A DNA stretch of 64,000 nt from Promethearchaeota archaeon Loki_b32 (lineage in GTDB: Archaea; Asgardarchaeota; Lokiarchaeia; Sigyniarchaeales; SOKP01): assembly GCA_005223125.1 (NCBI GenBank), contig NJBH01000012.1, positions 41,074-105,073 on the forward strand, given 5' to 3'. Position 1 is the first letter of the stretch; every line of letters starts with the position of its first letter. Below the pieces are notes generated by a model. That model searched no databases. It saw only the letters and a list, made by a program, of their open reading frames with translations, and was not told the DNA's origin. Of the stretch, positions 51,666 to 63,567 are shown piece by piece. The position numbers and the translations under genes are program-made.

Positions 51666-54600
51666 ATGAAATCAAAAAACAAAAAATTTATTGTTATTTT
51701 AACTATTTCGACATTTTTCTTGTTAAATGCTTTAGCCTTAATTAATGGGCTAGCTAAGACTATAGACGGTAAAGATGCAACCTTTAATCTTGATAAAGAA
51801 GATCCTTTAGGTCCTGAAGGTTATGGCGCAATAATTCCATCTCCTAATACAATGGGTAGAATATCAATTGATGGATCAAATCAAGGGAAGTTCACACTAA
51901 TGGATTGGTTAGGAGGATCAACTGGTTATGAAGAAATAGTAAGCTACTCAGGTGAAGATATTTCTCTTTACTATCCCACATATTTAGATGATTATATCTC
52001 TGATAGTTATACAAAAACCGATATTAATCCATGGTTAGATATTAGTTGGTTAAATATATCTGCATATAATGCTGAGGCTGAAACTTTATCTCCTTTCACT
52101 TTAAATTCTGTGTTTGATTACTACGTTTTAGGAGAGGGAGGTTCTTTAAATGCCCCTGCCAATAATGAACATCCATTACAAATCGATGTTATTGTTAAAA
52201 GTGGAGGTCCTAAAGTGCTTCAATTTGATTGGTTAATGGCTGATCCTACAGCAGCTTCATACGACTACTATTTAATTTCTCCTTCAGGAATTTATATGGA
52301 TACTAATTGTTATGAAGAACCAATAGCACACACAATAAGTTCTGGAACAGAATTGTTCAACATTTTGATATTTACAGCTTCTGAAATAGGTACATATCGT
52401 TTACTTTTTGATGTGGATCACACTGACCCTAGTTCTTTATATTTGGAGTTTTTAGATACCCAGATTTCATCGTTACCTACTGGTACGGTAAAATTTGCGG
52501 GGAATAGTGATGGAATTTTAAGTATTGAAGAAGGAAGTTATGCTGATTGGCAATCACAATGGTTTAGAATTAGCGGTAAAAAAGGAGATCTCTTTACTTT
52601 AGACTTATTTGAAGATTATGCTACAGGTGATGAACCTATTATAGATATCTGGACTCCGTGTGGAAATGGCTACCTTCTCGATTCAGGTAAAGTTATGGGA
52701 AGCCACGAGATTTATTTTCCTAAAAGCGGTGCAGCTTACATATCTTTTACAGATATAATTTTTGGTGATTGGTATAGATATTCATTATTCTTGAGCAAAA
52801 TAGAGACTGTCCAGTATACACTTGGAGAGAACCTAACCACCTTCATGCTTTCAAATGAAGAAAGAAAGGCTATAGAATTTTCACTCCGAGAAGATTCAAT
52901 TGTTCGATTTAATTATACAAGTCTAGCTCCTGAATTTCCAGAGATTTATGCATTTACTGCCGCTAAACGTTTTATTTATCGTGATTCAAGCGAGTTTGAA
53001 TGTTTTGATATTAATATGAGACTCATGGAAAGAACCTTCGGGTCGACTACTTTCTATTACCATTACATGCCCGCAGGAACCTATAGAGCTATAATAAAAA
53101 ATACAGTTGCAGGTGTGGACGGAGTTTTCCAAATTACCTCTAAGGTATATGATTGGGCAGATGAATCAGTTCCCGTAAATAATTTATCTTCTCCATACTT
53201 ATATCCTTCTGAATTAATCACTCTTGAGTTTGGGGCTGATGATTATTTTCCAAGTATCAAAGATCCTATTGGTATTGATATACAACTCCCTGAAATCGGT
53301 CAATTCATATTAAATACGACAATTTGGGCTTCAGATAACCCTGAGACTGCTACAGGCTTTCCTTCATATCTATATATGTATAACTCAACAGGTCCAGCAG
53401 ATTATTATAGTTTTGGTTACCCACAACCTGTATTTTCACTTGACGGTGATTCTACAGTAGGAGATTTCTTATACATCGGATCCCCAACAAGATGGGCAGG
53501 GATGGCATTTGATTTTTCAGTCCTTGGAGCTAGTGGAACAATGGAACCGTATGTTTACAACGGTGGATGGCAGTTAATATCGGAAGATAGCGATGGTACT
53601 AGTGAGCTCACTGCGGATGGTACAATAGAATTTGATATAACCGATTCCGACTTTACGGGATGGGATCTAGGAACTGGAGGTCTTATTATAGATCCTGCCA
53701 TTACTGAGGCTGATTATTATTGGATGAGATTAGAATGTACCGGAGATTACAGTGTTGGAACTGTACCTATTATACAACAATTAACACTACTAAATAATAC
53801 AATCGAAGGAAATGTATTCTTCAGACTCCTTGGAGAGACTGGTTATGAGTACGCTGATTATTTGGGCACTGGAGGTATTACCCAACCAAGTACTGAAACA
53901 GGGTTAGAAGTAAATTTAGATGATGATTTAGGTAGTTCATTTAATTGGGAAGACAGAGATAGTTATATTGTTAGAGGTTCATATCCTTTAATTATTGGAA
54001 TGGAAGAACGAACATACAAATTAATTATCCTTCCAGAATCATGGGATTATGAAGGAACAGTCAGGATTCAATTCGCAATCGAAGATTATTGGGGGTATCA
54101 CCATCAAGAAACTTACGATATTCCTACAATATCCCCTACTCCAAGTCTTCATGCAATCGATATAACAAACTACACTCTTAGTGGCTATTCTAATTTAACT
54201 GGGCCATACAATAATTACGGATTAACGACACAATACGACCATACTGAAACAACTCTAGGATTTGCTGGCGATGTGAGTTATTTTGCTCTACATTGTCATG
54301 GAAATGCTTATCAGTGGACACAATTAATCGTGACTATGCAAGGTGTAAGTAATTATGAACTCTATTTAATACAAGATCTTCCATGGATTACTAACGGTGG
54401 TCCAAATATGGAAGTAGCAACTATTGATACAAATGTTGGTGTCAATAGAACTTTTGAATTTGGTGTCTTTAATGAAGATTTTATTTTGTTATTTCAAGTC
54501 GAGGATGTTGCTGTAGATATCAAGTTTTATATTTCATTAAGCCAGTATGATACCGAAACACTTTTAACACTCGATAAAAAAGCATCTTATACACCACCAA

Positions 54601-54713
54601 TAGATATAATTTTAGTTTTAGCAATTGTTATACCTGCTGCTGTCGGAGGAGCTATCGTTGTAGTATATGTCTTGAAGAAGAAAGGTAAAATTTTAACAAA
54701 ACGTCCATCGTAA
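51666..54713 (+). CDS. Large secreted, C-terminally anchored surface (glyco)protein
   Basis: Basic + hydrophobic signal peptide; acidic beta-rich body; many N-x-S/T sequons (NIS, NLT, NYT, NTT, NST, NRT); C-terminal TM followed by KKKGK tail. Confidence 0.85.
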   Translation: MKSKNKKFIVILTISTFFLLNALALINGLAKTIDGKDATFNLDKEDPLGPEGYGAIIPSPNTMGRISIDGSNQGKFTLMDWLGGSTGYEEIVSYSGEDISLYYPTYLDDYISDSYTKTDINPWLDISWLNISAYNAEAETLSPFTLNSVFDYYVLGEGGSLNAPANNEHPLQIDVIVKSGGPKVLQFDWLMADPTAASYDYYLISPSGIYMDTNCYEEPIAHTISSGTELFNILIFTASEIGTYRLLFDVDHTDPSSLYLEFLDTQISSLPTGTVKFAGNSDGILSIEEGSYADWQSQWFRISGKKGDLFTLDLFEDYATGDEPIIDIWTPCGNGYLLDSGKVMGSHEIYFPKSGAAYISFTDIIFGDWYRYSLFLSKIETVQYTLGENLTTFMLSNEERKAIEFSLREDSIVRFNYTSLAPEFPEIYAFTAAKRFIYRDSSEFECFDINMRLMERTFGSTTFYYHYMPAGTYRAIIKNTVAGVDGVFQITSKVYDWADESVPVNNLSSPYLYPSELITLEFGADDYFPSIKDPIGIDIQLPEIGQFILNTTIWASDNPETATGFPSYLYMYNSTGPADYYSFGYPQPVFSLDGDSTVGDFLYIGSPTRWAGMAFDFSVLGASGTMEPYVYNGGWQLISEDSDGTSELTADGTIEFDITDSDFTGWDLGTGGLIIDPAITEADYYWMRLECTGDYSVGTVPIIQQLTLLNNTIEGNVFFRLLGETGYEYADYLGTGGITQPSTETGLEVNLDDDLGSSFNWEDRDSYIVRGSYPLIIGMEERTYKLIILPESWDYEGTVRIQFAIEDYWGYHHQETYDIPTISPTPSLHAIDITNYTLSGYSNLTGPYNNYGLTTQYDHTETTLGFAGDVSYFALHCHGNAYQWTQLIVTMQGVSNYELYLIQDLPWITNGGPNMEVATIDTNVGVNRTFEFGVFNEDFILLFQVEDVAVDIKFYISLSQYDTETLLTLDKKASYTPPIDIILVLAIVIPAAVGGAIVVVYVLKKKGKILTKRPS

Positions 54714-55673: not shown

Positions 55674-56873
55674 TTATTGTTCAGATTTTGTTTTTTTTAT
55701 TTCTTCTATTAATGCCGGAATAATTTCATGAAGATCTCCAACTATACCATAATGAGCCCAATTAAAGATTGGTGCATTTGGATCTTTATTTATTGCAACG
55801 ATAATGCCAGAATTTTGCATACCTACAAGATGTTGAATAGCCCCAGAAATTCCGCAAGCAATATACAATTTTGGAGATACAGTTTTACCTGTTTGACCTA
55901 TTTGTCTATCTGGATCTAACCAATTTAATTCAACAGTTATTCTCGACCCTCCCAGTTCAGCGTCCAAAACTTCTGCTAGTTCTTCTATAATTCGAAACTT
56001 TTCTTTGGAGCCGACACCACGCCCACCAGCAACAATAAATTTGGCATCCTCAAGATTCACACTATTCCGAGTTTTACTTATTACTTTTACTATTTTTAAA
56101 ACTGAATCTTTCTCTTTAAATTCGTACTCAAGTTTCCTAATGTTTACATTTTTTTTTACCTTCTCGGGCATTTTGAAAATGCCAGCTCTTACAGTTGCCA
56201 TTTGTGGTCTGCTAGAAGGTGTTCTAATAGTTGCCATAATAGCACCACCATATGTTGGGCGAGTTTGAAGTAGATTTCTAGTTTCAAGATTTATCTCTAA
56301 TCCCGTACAATCTGCAGTTAAACCTGCACTGAGTCTTTTTGCCACTCTTGGAGCAAAATCTCTACCGGTAGGGGTAGCCCCAATTAATATAATTTCAGGT
56401 TTGTTTTCTAACACTAATTCTGTAATTACTTTTGTATATAAATCTGAATAATAATCCTTCAATATCGGGGATTTAATATAGATGATCTCATCCATCCCAT
56501 ATAGGCTAAATTCTTCTAATTTATCATCGAAATCCGTACCCAATATAACAAGAGACAAATTTACTTGTAATAAATCTGCCAATTCTCGTCCTTTACATAG
56601 TAGTTGTAATGATACGTTATGAATTTTTTTTTTGTAATGTTCTGCTACAACCCAAACTCCTTTGAATTGGGAAATATCTATTTTTTGAGCTTTAACGTCA
56701 TCCCGGTCTAATGAAATCGCTTCTTCAGGACAGACCTCTACGCATGCACCACAAAGATTACAGTTTGGTAAAACGAATGCTATATTGTTATCTAATTCAA
56801 TAGCTCCATAGATGCAGCTCTCCATACAGCTAGCGCAACCAGTACATAATTCTTCATCAATTATAATGCTCAA
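55674..56873 (-). CDS. etfA: ETF alpha subunit with N-terminal ferredoxin domain (second copy)
   Basis: CTGCASCMESC, CNLCGACVEVCP, GLTADCT, QTRPTYGG, GISGAIQH. Confidence 0.95.
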   Translation of the reverse strand: MSIIIDEELCTGCASCMESCIYGAIELDNNIAFVLPNCNLCGACVEVCPEEAISLDRDDVKAQKIDISQFKGVWVVAEHYKKKIHNVSLQLLCKGRELADLLQVNLSLVILGTDFDDKLEEFSLYGMDEIIYIKSPILKDYYSDLYTKVITELVLENKPEIILIGATPTGRDFAPRVAKRLSAGLTADCTGLEINLETRNLLQTRPTYGGAIMATIRTPSSRPQMATVRAGIFKMPEKVKKNVNIRKLEYEFKEKDSVLKIVKVISKTRNSVNLEDAKFIVAGGRGVGSKEKFRIIEELAEVLDAELGGSRITVELNWLDPDRQIGQTGKTVSPKLYIACGISGAIQHLVGMQNSGIIVAINKDPNAPIFNWAHYGIVGDLHEIIPALIEEIKKTKSEQ

Positions 56874-56886
56874 ATGAATAGTCCTC

Positions 56887-57693
56887 TTAGAAAATTTTGT
56901 CCTCTTTTAAATGTTGACATAACTTTTGAACTACTTCTTCATTGGACCCTACTAACATGATGGGGTTTACCCTTCTTTTAGGAATGAAAATTTTCCTAAC
57001 TTCAGTCATAGAACCATTTAAACCAATTTTAGATTTGTCTGCATTTAATGTATTGGAATCAAGATATGTTAGTCTTGCTTTTTCATAGGCTTTCATAATT
57101 CCCGCTATACTAGGATATCTAGGTTTATTTATATCATTTAATACAGAAATTAAAGCTGGTAGTTGTGTTTCAATGATGACAATCTCTGTAGCTCTAAATT
57201 TTCGTTCTGCAACAATTTTGTCTTCACTCAATTCGATATTCAGTACATACGTTATTTGCGGAATTCCTAATTCTTCTGCTAATTCTGGAGGTACTTGTCC
57301 AGTATCTCCATCTATTGCTTGTGCACCACAAATTATAAGATATTTTTCTTCAGAATTAGATTCTTTTAATATCTTTTTAATAGCTAAACTAAGAGTGTGG
57401 GATGTAGCTAACGTATCTGCCCCCGCAAAAGCTCTATCGGTTAATAATACTCCCTTATCTACACCCATGGCTAAAACTTCACGTAATATTTCTTCTGCTT
57501 GAGGGGGTCCCATGCTCAAAGCTATAACTTCCAATTTATGCTTTTCCTTCAACATTAAAGCTAATTCAATAGCATTTCGATCATTAGGATTAATTATAGA
57601 CAAAACACCTTCTCTTACAAGTGTATTTGTGTTTGGGTCGATTTTTACCTCTGAAACTCCCGGGACTTGTTTAATACACACAAAAATTTTCAA
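56887..57693 (-). CDS. etfB: ETF beta subunit (second copy)
   Basis: VCIKQVP, GADTLATS, QAIDGDTGQV. Confidence 0.95.
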   Translation of the reverse strand: MKIFVCIKQVPGVSEVKIDPNTNTLVREGVLSIINPNDRNAIELALMLKEKHKLEVIALSMGPPQAEEILREVLAMGVDKGVLLTDRAFAGADTLATSHTLSLAIKKILKESNSEEKYLIICGAQAIDGDTGQVPPELAEELGIPQITYVLNIELSEDKIVAERKFRATEIVIIETQLPALISVLNDINKPRYPSIAGIMKAYEKARLTYLDSNTLNADKSKIGLNGSMTEVRKIFIPKRRVNPIMLVGSNEEVVQKLCQHLKEDKIF

Positions 57694-57819
57694 TCCGAAA
57701 TCACTACCTTATTAGTTCAACTCAAAAATCATATAACTTCTTTTAAAACGAATAAAAAATTCTAGCAAAATAAATTTTCCGATAACAAAATAAAAAATTA
57801 TGAAAATATTTAATTTTTG

Positions 57820-60800
57820 TTATTCATCATGTTTTAAAATTCCTATTTTAATTAAATGATTAACCATTATTGTTATAGTTCTTCTATCAAATGGGACGTG
57901 CGGATCTTTTGATAATAGAGTAATATTTGTTTTTTCTTTATTAATATAATTCTCAATTAATATCTTGTTTAAGAAGATTAGATTATTTAAATACTGATAA
58001 GTTGGTTGATTATATTTAGGACTGTTAAGAAGCCAAGTCATTATTATTAAATCTTGATTTTCGAATTCTTGTTTTAATAGCTTAATCATTTTGGTCTCAG
58101 AAATTTTATTTTTATATTCCATTAAGATTCTACAGATTATTTCATTAAGAAGATTACGCAACTCATTTGGAAAGACACGGATCTGATTATCCTCATTTAT
58201 TCCAATTCTCATTTTTGGGTTCTCATTTAGCCATTTTTGATAATCAAGATTTTTTTCTTCAAAAAATTTTTTTAGATGTGTTGTAATTGTCTGTCTATGT
58301 GGTATGTTAACTACTCCTTGATCTATCAAATATTCAACAATTCTAAGTGTAGATCTAAGTTTTTCATATAAAACCTTTAAACGTTCAGCCCTAGATTTAT
58401 CATACATATATTTCTCGAGCTCTAAGACTTTTGAAATCGTTTTGTTGATTAAATCGATATCTATACTAATACCTAATGTTTTTTCGCATGTATTTTTTAA
58501 AAATAAAGCACTTTTCTTTGAATAATTAAATACTTTTTTGTTATTTTGCTTTAACCATGATTTTATTTTATTGCGTATTATTTGCTGTTCAGATTCAGAA
58601 GAATTTAGGTAAATTAATTTTGAAGCGATCCAAATTCGCCTTAAAGGTTCTTTTAATTTCTCAGGTTTGCAGATTTGGAAAAACCTTACAATAGAATCTT
58701 TTTTTGCTATATCAACTCTCCAAGCAAATCTCTTTTCATCATATCTAATTGTTGGCGATGGTATTATATCTAATGCCAAACTCATTCTATAGAAATCCTC
58801 AACTAATGTTTTAGAGCAATTTTGAAATGATAATCGTATGGCTCTTTTATTATCTATATTTATGCTGCCATCAGTATCAAATAAGCCTTTTAAACACCTA
58901 ATAATGAAAGATTTATTTTTGAATATAAGATCAGGAACTCCTACTTGATTTTTTACTTTATTTCCAACTTTTAAACCTAAATTTACCAGAGTTTTAATAA
59001 TTAATTTACTATATACTCTTAGACTAATTCCTTTCCCTTTATGTTTGCTTATCTTAATTTCTCTATTAAGTAGAGTTTCCATTAAAATTTTTACATAGGA
59101 CACGTATTTAGGGTCATCTATGCGATTTAATGATATATCTAATTGATTTTGATAATTTTTAGAAAACAAATTACCATCTCCTAGCAGAATACCTATTAGT
59201 TCTGAAGTTAAATCATTTTCTCCTAAATTTAAAACTAGATCTGTAGTATTTAAAAAATTTTGTATCATAAGTTTCTTAACTGCTAAATCAAAATCCCAAC
59301 CCCATTTAATATATTTTTGTGTGTTTTGTCTAAAATCATTTCCTAATAAAGAAATCAAATCTTCTGTTGGAAGTTTGCTCAATACCGATATAAGCTGCTC
59401 CTTATCATCCTCATCAAGCTTATCTTTTTTGATAGTCTTAAGGATTAATGATTTTTCATTTAGTCTCAAGGTTGCATTCTTATATAAATTCTCCTTTAAA
59501 ATCTCCTTCCAATTTTCTTTAGCTTGCTCTCTCGAAACTCTTTCTATGTTAGAATTTTCAATTTTTTTGAGTTTTTTTAATTTTTGAGCAAGATATTTGA
59601 CAAATTTTACTCGTTCATCTTGAATACGGTATTCAAACCAACCAATATTGTTATTATAGAAATTTCTAAATGTACGTAAGTTGTCAAAGAGATCATCCTG
59701 TATTTCATTCAGATCTTTAATTAATTCTTCAATTTCCCGTATTTTTTTTTCTGATAAAATCTCCTTTCCTAATAATTGGTTTAATCTTCTGACAACTTTT
59801 CTAAATTCTCGATATTTTCTAATTTTCTCAATAAGTTCTTTTCTAATCTCTTTAGGAATCTCTTTCTCATCAGCCTCATTTATCCATGTTTCTAATAAGT
59901 TTTCCCAATCTTCAATAGGTTCTTCTTTCTCCTCAGTTTCTTGATCTTTTTGTTTTTCCTGTTCTGATTTTACGTTTGATTTTAGCCATTCATCAAATCC
60001 TTTAGTTATTTTCTCTTTGTATAAAGGTCTTTTTCCAGTTTCCAGATAGTATCTATTTTTAAGTTCATCGGGAATTTTCTGCTCACAATCTTTTTCATCT
60101 TTTGGTTTGCCTTGTTGCTCTTCATTTTTTACTTTATTAAGTTCATTTTCTTGATTTTCCTTTTTCAATAGTTTCTTTTCAATCTCTTTTTTAGTTTCTT
60201 TTTCTTTTTCTTGGCTTTTTAATTCTGGTTTTAGCAAAAGAATAGTACTTTGATCAGATCTTTGTCTATTAATACTTTTATTATCTGATCCAGAATCTTT
60301 TTTTTGAATATGTGTTTTTTTTGTCTTTCTTGGCATTTTTTTCTCAATCCTTTTTTGTTCTCTTCTATTTACTGTAGCGGTCGTGCCCTCAAATGATTTT
60401 TTATCACTATAACTTGAAGAAAAGTTGTCAGCCATGACTAAGGTTCGATTCCCCTTTTGAATTGTTTCCGAGTAAGATTCAGTTGTACTTTCATCAATGC
60501 TTTCATAGTTTTTCTCTTGTTTAGATTCCTGTTCTGGAGAACTAATGGGTTCTTGTTCTGGTTCCTCAATAGGTTGATTTTCAGGTTCTATAGGTTCAAA
60601 AGTACCTTCAGGGACTTCAATTTCTGGAATTTCACCACCTGCTAATTCTTCTGGTGATGCCCACTCTGGCACGATTTCTGGATCAGGCTCTTCTATTGGT
60701 TCCTCAAGGGGTTGACTTTCAGGTTCTTCTATTGGTTCAAAAGTATCTTCAGGAACATCTATTCCAGGGATTTCACCTCCCGCTAATTCCTCTGGTGATG

Positions 60801-61203
60801 CCCATTCTGGTACGATTTCTGGATCTGGTTCTTGATCTGGTTCCTCAGTAGGTTCATTTTCTGGTTGTTGCTCAGCGGGGGATAAGTCTGTTTCTGTTCC
60901 TTCTCTACCAATATTAGATTCAAAATCATTTTCATTATCACTATCAGAGGATTGGCTTTCTGGTGTAAAACTATCATTTTGCCAATCATAATCTTCATTT
61001 GGATCGAAATTATCTTCCCAATTATAATCTTCATCTGGATCGAAATTATCTTCCCAATTATAGTCTTCATCCGGATCATAGTCACTCCCCCAATCGTAAT
61101 CCTCATCAGGATCAAATTCTCCATCATCAAATTCTTCATCTGGATCAGTATCTGGATTATGTTCGGGCTCATCCTCATCGTATTCATCACCGGATTCACT
61201 AAT
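57820..61203 (-). CDS. ~1127-aa protein: acidic tandem-repeat N-terminus, helical linker, double-motif LAGLIDADG endonuclease, HTH-like C-terminus
   Basis: Frame is open 177 codons upstream of the track's GTG (60672) to ATT at 61203, 7 nt after GAGGAG; LAGLIDADG motifs ELIGILLGDG and CLKGLFDTDG. Confidence 0.75.
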   Translation of the reverse strand: MSESGDEYDEDEPEHNPDTDPDEEFDDGEFDPDEDYDWGSDYDPDEDYNWEDNFDPDEDYNWEDNFDPNEDYDWQNDSFTPESQSSDSDNENDFESNIGREGTETDLSPAEQQPENEPTEEPDQEPDPEIVPEWASPEELAGGEIPGIDVPEDTFEPIEEPESQPLEEPIEEPDPEIVPEWASPEELAGGEIPEIEVPEGTFEPIEPENQPIEEPEQEPISSPEQESKQEKNYESIDESTTESYSETIQKGNRTLVMADNFSSSYSDKKSFEGTTATVNRREQKRIEKKMPRKTKKTHIQKKDSGSDNKSINRQRSDQSTILLLKPELKSQEKEKETKKEIEKKLLKKENQENELNKVKNEEQQGKPKDEKDCEQKIPDELKNRYYLETGKRPLYKEKITKGFDEWLKSNVKSEQEKQKDQETEEKEEPIEDWENLLETWINEADEKEIPKEIRKELIEKIRKYREFRKVVRRLNQLLGKEILSEKKIREIEELIKDLNEIQDDLFDNLRTFRNFYNNNIGWFEYRIQDERVKFVKYLAQKLKKLKKIENSNIERVSREQAKENWKEILKENLYKNATLRLNEKSLILKTIKKDKLDEDDKEQLISVLSKLPTEDLISLLGNDFRQNTQKYIKWGWDFDLAVKKLMIQNFLNTTDLVLNLGENDLTSELIGILLGDGNLFSKNYQNQLDISLNRIDDPKYVSYVKILMETLLNREIKISKHKGKGISLRVYSKLIIKTLVNLGLKVGNKVKNQVGVPDLIFKNKSFIIRCLKGLFDTDGSINIDNKRAIRLSFQNCSKTLVEDFYRMSLALDIIPSPTIRYDEKRFAWRVDIAKKDSIVRFFQICKPEKLKEPLRRIWIASKLIYLNSSESEQQIIRNKIKSWLKQNNKKVFNYSKKSALFLKNTCEKTLGISIDIDLINKTISKVLELEKYMYDKSRAERLKVLYEKLRSTLRIVEYLIDQGVVNIPHRQTITTHLKKFFEEKNLDYQKWLNENPKMRIGINEDNQIRVFPNELRNLLNEIICRILMEYKNKISETKMIKLLKQEFENQDLIIMTWLLNSPKYNQPTYQYLNNLIFLNKILIENYINKEKTNITLLSKDPHVPFDRRTITIMVNHLIKIGILKHDE
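60548..60831 (-). repeat. 141-bp coding repeat x2 (47 aa, EPDPEIVPEWASPEELAGGEIP...)
   Basis: VPEWASPEELAGGEIP starts at both 60813 and 60672. Confidence 0.9.
60973..61116 (-). repeat. 36-bp coding tandem repeat x4 ([FY]DP[DN]EDY[DN]Wxxx)
   Basis: FDPDEDYDWGSD/YDPDEDYNWEDN/FDPDEDYNWEDN/FDPNEDYDWQND. Confidence 0.9.
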
Positions 61204-61246
61204 AGATAATCTCCTCTAAGATTATAATTATAAGAGTAATTTTTAT

Positions 61247-63388
61247 TCAATTTTTTTCTTTAAGTTTTGAGGAGTCCCCATCTAATTTATCCATAATTAA
61301 ATTAGAGTCTAATTTCAAAGAATTCCCGCAAGCACTACAGAAATTATCATAAGGATTTATCGAATTTTTGCATAAAGGACACACATTCTCAAATGTACTT
61401 ACAGAATGATTTAGAATTGTTTTATAATTGAAATCCATTGTATATATTGCAAACTTTCGCCCATTTACACCATCGATAACTATTGCATTTCTATTTCCTA
61501 ACATAGTTAAGCTATCTTGTTCTTCTACATTGTTGGTAAACAACTTACTGCAAGATTGTGCAGTTCTAAACAAAATAAGAATACTTGGAAGTGAATAGAT
61601 TGATTCGAATAATTCAGACGGCTTTTGAGCTGTAAGAATTAATGATATTCCACGACTCCTAAAAGCCTCTAGAAAATCAGAGAGAATTTCTTCTAAAAAA
61701 TATTGAGAAATAAACTCATCATCATTAGAGGCTTTAGTAGCAGGTTTTTTTGCAATTGCGCCAATTTCATCTAGCATGATTACATTTTTCAATATATTAG
61801 TTCTAATTTGAGGAAAAAAGATCCTTATCATTTGAAAAATCAGATTGATCAATAATTTTTTAATAAATTCATTACATATGGATTCAGAGAGATCTATAAA
61901 TACATTTTTACCATTCATCCATTCTATAAACCAGAATGGTTTAATAGAAGGCAATCTTGTTATTTGATCTAAAGTTGGAGATGATGTCCATCTTATGGCT
62001 CGGTTTTTTATAGCGTTTATAATATTCATTTGATATTTTTTATGGTATTGATGTTTTTCAAACCAATTCAGAAGCTTTCCAAATAATTTTTCTAAAGAAA
62101 CTGGAACCTCTTGGTTCTTTTCGAAATACTTAAGCATGGCATTGTACATTACGATGTCAACTGGTTGCTTTAATCCAAGAGATGAGCTTAGCAATGCTGC
62201 TAATTGTTCAAAAGTAACTTCGATGTTTTTCCCCTTAAAAAAATAGGGGACTCTAAAGTCTGGATCTCCATATTTTAAGTTAATATCTAAATTATACTGT
62301 ATATCCTCATCTTCCTTTTTTAAACTTATAATTAAAACACCACAATTAGGGGTTTTTATTGAGATTTCATGCTGTAAATGGTTTAAGAATGTAGTTTTTC
62401 CAGAACCACTTTTTCCACTAATAAATGCGTGATGAACCAAATCATTCTTTGAAATTGTAATTTTCTTATGAGTTATAGTTCCTCTACTAATATAATATCC
62501 AAGAAATAACTCGTTTTTACTAAGTTTCCTTGAAAAATTCACATTTTCGTTATGTACCTTTATAGCTTTATTAAGAAGGAAGTATTCAGGAATGCTGAAA
62601 TCAATCGCTTTTGGATTTACAAACCCTGGAATCCTATCTTCTAGAATTAAATCTTTAATACCAGTGTAGAATCTCCCTGTATCAGCACCAAGAACATTTT
62701 TCCAAAAGACTCTCCCATTTAATATTTGTTCCCATGTGTCTTTTAGTGTTTGTTTAAGTGTCGCCCTTTCACCATCTATATTTTTTATATCTGATGTTAA
62801 ATATTGTAAGTGTCCTTTTAGTTCTGCTTTTTGATCTTTAATATCTATTTTATTTTCGAATTTTGGAACAATTGAAATATAAATTTTTATTTTAAAATCT
62901 TCTTCTAATTTATATTCTTTTTCTAATTCTGTTCCTTTAATTTCCCCTATAATAGAATCATCTGCTTGCCATAATATATAAATTTTAATTATGTGCTTTT
63001 TATTAAAAGTAAAAAGATTGACAACTTTTTGGAATAGATTAATTTTTTTATGGAAGAAGGGTTTAGGGAGAATTAACTCAAATATTAGCTTCTGTTTATT
63101 TAATTGTTTGAAATCTATTGGCTTTACTTTAACATCTCCAGACAAACCCGGATAAACTTCTTTTAAATAATCCAAAAAATGAAAACCATCTTGAATTGCT
63201 TGCTCTTTTGATTCTGCTTTTAAAAAAAATTTCCATGAGAAATAATCCTCCTCAATTGTAAACTTTGTTCCATATACACGACCATCAACAAAAGGATTGC
63301 ATAACCATGAAGAATCATCTTCATTTTTATTTTTCATATTTGGGACTTGATTGATTTTTATAATGGTAAGGTAAAATTCAGGTTTCAA
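61247..63388 (-). CDS. HerA/FtsK/VirB4-like P-loop ATPase (DUF87-type) with an unknown N-terminal domain and a C-terminal zinc ribbon
   Basis: HAFISGKSGSGKTT Walker A, NVFIDLS, VIMLDE Walker B, FRSRGISLILTAQKPS; CPLC...FCSACG; GAGGTG before the TTG. Confidence 0.85.
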   Translation of the reverse strand: MKPEFYLTIIKINQVPNMKNKNEDDSSWLCNPFVDGRVYGTKFTIEEDYFSWKFFLKAESKEQAIQDGFHFLDYLKEVYPGLSGDVKVKPIDFKQLNKQKLIFELILPKPFFHKKINLFQKVVNLFTFNKKHIIKIYILWQADDSIIGEIKGTELEKEYKLEEDFKIKIYISIVPKFENKIDIKDQKAELKGHLQYLTSDIKNIDGERATLKQTLKDTWEQILNGRVFWKNVLGADTGRFYTGIKDLILEDRIPGFVNPKAIDFSIPEYFLLNKAIKVHNENVNFSRKLSKNELFLGYYISRGTITHKKITISKNDLVHHAFISGKSGSGKTTFLNHLQHEISIKTPNCGVLIISLKKEDEDIQYNLDINLKYGDPDFRVPYFFKGKNIEVTFEQLAALLSSSLGLKQPVDIVMYNAMLKYFEKNQEVPVSLEKLFGKLLNWFEKHQYHKKYQMNIINAIKNRAIRWTSSPTLDQITRLPSIKPFWFIEWMNGKNVFIDLSESICNEFIKKLLINLIFQMIRIFFPQIRTNILKNVIMLDEIGAIAKKPATKASNDDEFISQYFLEEILSDFLEAFRSRGISLILTAQKPSELFESIYSLPSILILFRTAQSCSKLFTNNVEEQDSLTMLGNRNAIVIDGVNGRKFAIYTMDFNYKTILNHSVSTFENVCPLCKNSINPYDNFCSACGNSLKLDSNLIMDKLDGDSSKLKEKN

Positions 63389-63456
63389 TTCTTACACCTC
63401 TTTTTTAAAATTTTTAATTTTTTTACTTGGAATTGCATAATGGCATAACAAACTAA

Positions 63457-63567
63457 CTAATTTAAATCCATATTTTTAAAAGGTTCAGGGAGATATTTTA
63501 ATAGCAAATATGAGACTAATATTGAAAACAGCAAAAATCCTATGATTATGGGTATTTCCTCAAACAT
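63457..63567 (-). CDS. 36-aa single-TM peptide, missed by the ORF track
   Basis: MFEEIPIIIGFLLFSILVSYLLLKYLPEPFKNMDLN*; 68 nt upstream of the ATPase on the same strand. Confidence 0.55.
   Translation of the reverse strand: MFEEIPIIIGFLLFSILVSYLLLKYLPEPFKNMDLN

Follow-up and report, generated by a model that had tools for sequence, protein, structure and literature searches.

Introduction

To our knowledge, homing endonucleases are encoded by lone genes, and phage co-infection, mating or organelle fusion is needed for them to encounter an allele that is still empty. The cut of a free-standing homing endonuclease lies far from its own insertion, the DNA in between is co-converted, and an intron without an open reading frame (ORF) can protect the target (PMC2988022). 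Mobile ORFs of fungi carry replacement gene ends (PMC3630166). Introns that fold as a bulge-helix-bulge (BHB) are excised by EndA, and one archaeal case in a coding sequence is known (PMC7714728); a preprint of 2026 reports no general arrival route for the tRNA introns of Asgard archaea (10.64898/2026.10.13.758758). Here we analyse a stretch of 64,000 nucleotides from Promethearchaeota archaeon Loki_b32 (contig NJBH01000012.1), hereafter the window, in which an ATPase gene and the gene of a giant nuclease-tipped protein stand next to etfB. We propose, with a probability of about 0.7, that they belong to a homing-endonuclease cassette borne on an exchangeable motor carrier. We favour homing because the data match the patterns of free-standing homing, of replaced gene ends and of BHB introns. 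A literature search found no paper on this cassette or on coding-sequence introns of Asgard archaea, most subscription journals being outside its coverage.

In what follows, the giant is the acidic-leader protein with its core and exchangeable C-terminal tip, and the carrier comprises an M50-like protease and/or a membrane pseudo-ATPase together with the HerA/VirB4 ATPase, the acidic leader and the core. The window forms the end of contig C67 of the source genome (G000; 4.13 Mb, 30% GC, 71 contigs); the unit runs on past it, since the window stops at the contig end.

The insertion between acd and etfB

In empty relatives acd lies directly 5' of etfB and the two genes are contiguous, whereas the window copy splits them. 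The site is filled at the identical base, the stop codon of the giant, in G000, in its closest relative L072 and in two further genomes (G076 and G078). The latter two connect the acd flank to the tip and etfB, and internal deletions have left 133 bp or about 1 kb of their left end. A deletion series is seen (G000 > L154 > L153), and the single-gene forms at acd-etfB are deletion products. The acd flank of G000 opens contig C60. Behind acd this contig carries genes for a CDC48-N domain protein and a TPR protein, and then the beginning of a membrane pseudo-ATPase gene, cut by the contig end. From L153 and L154 we infer that C60 holds one half of an element and C67 the other. In L072 (L072:1-9046), genes for NurA, an Argonaute-like protein and SBBP occupy the left side in place of acd, either through rearrangement between cassette copies or through misassembly.

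Within its conserved MG-E-IYEGT codons, acd carries a 30-nt insert that contains a TAG in frame (C60, about 2428-2457). This insert was found in 3/3 filled alleles and in 0/24 empty ones. The insert has the shape of a relaxed BHB, with a 9-bp stem, three of the four central-helix pairs (there is a G-A mismatch) and a 4-bp exon helix, and its alleles differ by compensatory G-U changes. This geometry occurs in 0.04% of random coding 30-mers. The last exon of acd is 95-96% identical among filled alleles, as compared to 79% with close empty alleles, and the upstream exon is at background (86-89%); insert and last exon are linked. Read-through of the TAG was considered and rejected, as the sister inserts, with lengths of 28, 31, 32 and 34 nt, disrupt the reading frame. 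The geometry suggests a BHB-like intron of the tRNA type, whose splicing is predicted; the reads of the single RNA run do not reach it.

The proteins of the window copy

The preliminary description of the window listed three co-oriented genes with gaps of 68 and 43 nt, encoding a 36-residue transmembrane micropeptide, an ATPase and a giant protein. The three minus-strand frames, their spacing, the ATPase and the giant are real, but the first gene is a protease pseudogene. In fact, the 36-residue frame is the start (codons 1-33) of an M50-like protease gene of 234 aa, joined in the wrong frame to roughly the last 80 nt of that gene after a deletion of about 520 bp, as the alignment with L072 (9390-9914) and with the intact copy on contig C4 of G000 revealed. 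The stump is 79% identical to the N-terminus of this intact 230-aa protease. It is thus a remnant and no independent micropeptide gene. An intact orthologue matches Pfam Peptidase_M50 (E 1.1e-4), and the intact orthologues, which carry HExxH plus a PSxxD motif, are M50-like.

The ATPase contains an alpha/beta N-domain of about 290 residues, Walker A (GKSGSGKT, aa 325-332), Walker B (MLDE, aa 540-541), an arginine finger, an FRSRG..AQ motif and a Cys4 zinc ribbon. These motifs, of which Walker A and B had already been reported as intact, are at positions invariant or nearly so across 33 homologues, and the ratio of nonsynonymous to synonymous substitution rates (dN/dS) is 0.14-0.15. The AlphaFold2 (AF2) model has a predicted local distance difference test (pLDDT) score of 82, and its best Foldseek matches are VirB4/TrwK (8e-15) and HerA (2e-14).

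Structures of defence HerA proteins are also among the fold matches and the ATPase adjoins a nuclease, as would be expected of an anti-virus motor-nuclease of the kind of HerA-DUF4297 or Nezha; L072, moreover, lies near NurA and Argonaute genes. PADLOC, however, gave weak generic ATPase matches, none for the giant and no convincing model, and the cassettes are inserted in housekeeping operons, with protective edits in the neighbouring genes and a nuclease of a sequence-specific class. We consider the anti-virus function suggested earlier very improbable.

The deeper relatives of the ATPase are membrane-anchored and are encoded near a VirB11/FlaI-like ATPase. At L044-L047 and in G000 (C61 97487-101644), a membrane-anchored ATPase of about 900 aa stands with a VirB11/FlaI-like ATPase and membrane proteins of about 520 aa, possibly an Asgard transfer or pilus locus. 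That the ATPases of about 900 aa are M50-ATPase fusions was rejected (hhalign probability 0.3%). In a sister ATPase clade (L039, L041, L042, L088), always 3' of a thermosome gene, a GIY-YIG-like protein of about 690 aa is encoded upstream and no giant downstream.

The giant has 1127 residues in a frame of 1131 codons between stops. Its ATT start is at 61203, 7 nt past a GGAG, and recurs in about eight homologues; the orthologue L032 has ATG there. ATT or ATA behind a strong ribosome-binding site is the rule among these giants, so that gene callers truncate them. The leader contains 38% Asp plus Glu, has a net charge of -92 and is built of repeats (36 bp x 3.8 and 141 bp x 2.3), whereas the tip is basic (+27). 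The core ends at a KWGWD motif, which is the point of tip exchange; the fold search gave no match for the core at E<=0.001, and the Atlas search found nothing for it. The tip matches Pfam LAGLIDADG_3 (E 1.7e-9) and, as had been stated, its two motifs retain the acidic catalytic positions, D676 (59176-59178) and D778 (58870-58872). Compared with the carrier-deleted copies L153 and L154, its dN/dS is 0.17-0.24, that is, it is under purifying selection. The window giant gave no Hint match in Pfam, and the arrangement of an intein, with Hint around the nuclease inside a host protein, was not found in it.

The coordinates of the features are collected in Table 1. Elsewhere in the window, positions 51666-54713 encode a 1015-aa protein, probably secreted and C-terminally anchored, without a Pfam match.

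Table 1. Features of the cassette and its right flank in the window
Feature	Position	Strand	Evidence or remark
Host flank etfB-etfA	55674..57693	-	directly 3' of acd in empty alleles
Right end of the insertion, at the stop codon of the giant	57815..57822		alignment of 4 filled and 14 empty alleles
Site-specific tip: two-motif LAGLIDADG domain and helical tail of ~270 aa	57820..59247	-	Pfam; dN/dS
Conserved all-helical core, aa 379-652	59248..60069	-	alignments; sister-carrier DNA homology ends here
Hyperacidic disordered leader, aa 1-250	60454..61203	-	12-aa and 47-aa repeats, copy number varies
GGAG ribosome-binding site and ATT start of the giant	61201..61214	-	spacing kept in ~8 homologues; ATG there in L032
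HerA/VirB4-superfamily ATPase, 713 aa	61247..63388	-	Pfam DUF87/TrwB; AF2; Foldseek; dN/dS
3' tail of the deleted protease gene (the 68-nt gap)	63393..63475	-	blastn continuity with protease 3' ends of L072, L073 and C4
Stump of M50-like HExxH membrane protease, pseudogene (codons 1-33, then out of frame)	63457..63567	-	homologue alignment

Distribution and gene order of the cassette family

The unit, [M50 protease and/or membrane pseudo-ATPase]-ATPase-giant, occupies many unrelated sites within one Promethearchaeia family. The ATPase profile matches 59/135 host-family genomes, counting fragments and membrane-anchored relatives. The giant core is present in 16/68 genomes of the host family, with up to ten giants in one genome, and is absent from 232/232 other genomes drawn from the phylum. 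The pairing of ATPase and giant is conserved in other genomes: an acidic-leader giant is directly 3' of the ATPase at 23 loci. Directly upstream of the ATPase stands an M50 gene at 17 loci and, at six, the gene of a membrane protein of about 1280 aa without Walker motifs (the pseudo-ATPase), which gives a weak HerA-domain match. Empty sites, many sites of insertion and several copies per genome bear out the idea of a mobile module. In the complete cassettes L085, L105, L110 and L113 no integrase, transposase or relaxase was recognised; the gap of the window copy is unassembled.

The source genome contains a second cassette (L174; C4 74000-94855), with a pseudo-ATPase split into frames of 821 and 484 aa, an intact M50 gene, an ATPase 40% identical to that of the window and a 1467-aa giant with a Zn-ribbon/PD-(D/E)xK-like tip. 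The epimerase-like gene downstream is split over two frames.

The motor genes might be decaying passengers from a type IV secretion system (T4SS) or Ced-like island, fused to resident homing nucleases and without a role in homing. The related membrane-anchored ATPases beside a VirB11/FlaI-like ATPase (L044-L047) would agree with this, as would the frequency of deleted forms, the dead protease of the window copy and the change of HExxH to HKxxH in that of L072. Against it, the ATPase is under purifying selection, HExxH is retained in nearly all of 17 proteases, gene order is constant across a deep ATPase tree, and carriers 94.6% identical are found at two sites within one genome (L085/L089). 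For these reasons the carrier is unlikely to be debris, even if the window copy has lost its protease.

Exchange of tips on one carrier

Past the core, the giants carry two types of LAGLIDADG domain, tandem HNH, a Zn ribbon with a PD-(D/E)xK-like domain (a label read from motifs, without Pfam support), GIY-YIG, helix-turn-helix (HTH) arrays, a TFIIB-like domain, a DEDD exonuclease, Hint-LAGLIDADG or unassigned sequence. The conserved leader with an exchangeable C-terminal nuclease, supposed from the window alone, is thus a property of the family, and the tip families agree with those of homing endonucleases (PMC6083498). Sister cores bear unrelated tips: HNH in L055 and LAGLIDADG in L103 (83% core identity), HNH in L033 and LAGLIDADG in L091 (79%). 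At the DNA level these sister carriers match at 89% identity as far as the core end, where homology stops. Conversely, L033 and L104 have HNH tip and site in common, with cores just 42% identical. Tips more than 55% identical have the same downstream host gene at 6/6 testable sites (etfB, DLDH, SMC, GlpD-like, PFK and the L108/L112 site). Since sister cores have unrelated tips and like tips are at like sites, a tip is bound to its site, and it is the carrier that passes from tip to tip. The comparison of the window with L072, in which synonymous divergence (dS) is 0.35-0.49 over ATPase and leader and 0.00-0.03 over core and tip, is taken to show the same movement.

Tip-related nucleases are also encoded in G000 by free-standing genes (C56 2988-3776, C48 139488-141122, C21 146728-147714, C44 61599-63479, C57 28739-29647 and C6 78985-81372). 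That on C56 abuts a tRNA-like gene holding a 30-nt insert, and the HNH gene on C48 occupies the thermosome site that L055 and L119 use. In L036 (10511-12640) and L115 (5727-7940), acidic-leader proteins end in a Hint plus LAGLIDADG unit with little or no C-extein.

A conserved N-part, a fixed swap point and many tips are also features of polymorphic toxins, and the ATPase could export the giant to kill neighbours with its swappable nuclease, immunity residing in an altered target or in a block by the leader. FtsK/HerA ATPases do drive toxin export in the type VII secretion system (T7SS; PMC3482391), and Hint-containing tips (L036, L115) would fit. Nevertheless, there is no space for an immunity gene at 31/42 loci, because host-homologous sequence restarts within 350 nt of the giant stop (0 nt at the window site). 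Furthermore, tips track chromosomal sites and protective changes in the neighbouring genes rather than strains, those without a carrier remain under selection, and the accessible part of the toxin survey does not mention LAGLIDADG. The toxin effector, also suggested in the preliminary description, is accordingly unlikely, and slightly less probable even than decaying motor genes.

Inserts and replaced gene ends at other sites

Inserts of 28-34 nt also break PFK, TldD-like, LeuRS, MoxR-like, Elf1-like and other genes (names assigned from motifs) beside other cassettes. At nine of ten insert-bearing loci an insert is found no more than 700 nt from a cassette end, in a zone that makes up 9% of the aligned coding DNA (binomial P 4e-9, an overstatement given that two loci represent one site and that the genomes are kin; 8/9 as independent sites). 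One leucyl-tRNA synthetase gene (L094:5283-6160), directly 3' of a giant with a DEDD-exonuclease tip, holds four inserts of 28-34 nt. The DLDH gene has a variant tail beside the nuclease, and a tail like that of the empty allele sits across the element; replaced 3' ends with a displaced copy were found at DLDH, SMC, the GlpD-like gene and one further site.

Other BHB-shaped inserts of 28-30 nt are present in G000 (C3 about 75803, C66 about 7882, C57 about 12437 and C36 about 188606). Their removal restores the EF-2 AHIDHGKT, CTP synthase and ribosomal L11 motifs or joins two frames. The genome-wide BHB scan was noisy (530 raw hits), and the cases kept are those that restore motifs.

Proposed mechanism

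We propose a selfish element of the homing type that works in two layers. In the first, the site-bound LAGLIDADG tip would most likely cut the conserved end of intron-less acd, at the MG-E-IYEGT codons, and repair from the occupied allele would copy in the cassette together with the 30-nt BHB-like intron and the new last exon. The intron would break the nuclease target, and hence protect it, and the acd mRNA would be restored by the tRNA-splicing endonuclease of the host. At other sites, in place of an intron, the host gene would receive a recoded 3' end from the element. In the second layer, the carrier moves from site to site through recombination with other tips at the core end and is often deleted later, leaving a free-standing nuclease.

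Several observations weigh against this proposal. In read mapping over the acd region no contig bridged C60 to C67, and the left flank of L072 differs from the acd flank of C60. The PFK site is loose, with nine intron alleles, two of them with an adjacent nuclease, and one nuclease without an intron; this pattern fits introns that outlast their nucleases, yet it weakens a one-to-one rule. No nuclease gene was found within 5 kb of the four other intron candidates of G000, and several tips (HTH arrays, TFIIB-like, DEDD exonuclease, unassigned) are not recognisable endonucleases. The cassette has no recognisable pilin, VirB6 or relaxase, and its protease is dead in the window copy. Finally, the sampled genomes are kin, and counts overstate independence.

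The job of the carrier is the least certain part. Our first choice, which receives about half of the remaining weight, is that a motor tied to the membrane takes hold of the polyanionic leader and carries the nuclease, alone or together with DNA, across into a neighbouring cell, and that the protease takes off the leader, which may also mask the basic nuclease. A polyanionic leader would suit a HerA/VirB4 motor whose pore translocates DNA, and it could shield the tip; the membrane partners suggest transport. The lack of a relaxase or pilin is compatible with transfer, because archaeal conjugative plasmids likewise show none that is recognisable (PMC9905601). As a second choice, an intracellular motor might extend resection, so that the 6-12 kb cassette is co-converted. 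We regard as possible, but doubtful, a self-delivering element in the full sense: protease and motor would export a leader-tagged, auto-inhibited nuclease to neighbouring Asgard cells, the carrier would gather specificities by tip swaps, and tRNA-type introns would be seeded in coding genes.

The homing cassette would provide a testable route by which mRNA introns are gained in those archaea that stand closest to eukaryotes. The intron or recoded gene end marks the predicted target of each tip, and about 60 nucleases can be assayed directly.

Comparison with known systems

The cassette resembles the T7SS polymorphic toxins (PMC3482391) in having an ATPase gene beside one for a long protein whose N-part is conserved and whose nuclease end can be swapped; in contrast to them, it contains no immunity gene or WXG/LXG domain and its tips are bound to chromosomal sites. 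With the Ced/Ted DNA import systems and VirB4 (PMC9905601) it shares an archaeal VirB4/HerA-like ATPase with membrane partners, but it has no recognisable VirB6/CedA or pilin, and is multi-copy and mobile instead of a single host locus. The acd insert is similar to the BHB mRNA intron of cbf5 in Crenarchaeota (cited in PMC7714728), both being small BHB-shaped inserts in coding sequence that need removal; no linked nuclease cassette is reported for cbf5, and the acd motif is relaxed and its splicing predicted.

As in the mobile ORFs of fungal mitochondria (Allomyces atp6, Glomus; PMC3630166), a foreign C-terminal exon is brought in and a native-like end is displaced across the element (DLDH and GlpD-like sites); those are, however, one small ORF, whereas the cassette has a motor, a protease and a modular giant. 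In the arrangement of nuclease and target the cassette resembles the free-standing homing endonucleases of phages and their collaborative homing (T4 seg/mob; F-CphI with the psbA intron; PMC2988022). There, too, an intergenic nuclease stands beside conserved genes, an ORF-less intron lies at the presumed target, the flank is co-converted and the presumed cut is at least hundreds of bases from the insertion. Intact catalytic residues, empty and filled alleles, and an altered target with a co-converted flank (in G000 across the predicted contig join) are found here as in free-standing homing endonucleases. Unlike those compact single-gene elements, the cassette is multi-gene; unlike the phage systems, it is chromosomal and archaeal, with a BHB-type micro-intron in place of a group I intron, and its nuclease is the tip of a protein of 1100-2400 aa co-encoded with an ATPase and a protease.

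The homing layer is of a known kind in a new setting. What is new is that carrier and nuclease-intron pairs form one family, in which tips from unrelated classes of nuclease are exchanged at one fixed position, and that the lone nuclease at the acd-etfB site is a deletion product. At least one pair of free-standing nuclease and micro-intron in Lokiarchaeia thus derives from a much larger cassette, whose family, unlike the phage elements, keeps a motor and a protease under selection while trading unrelated nucleases on one scaffold.

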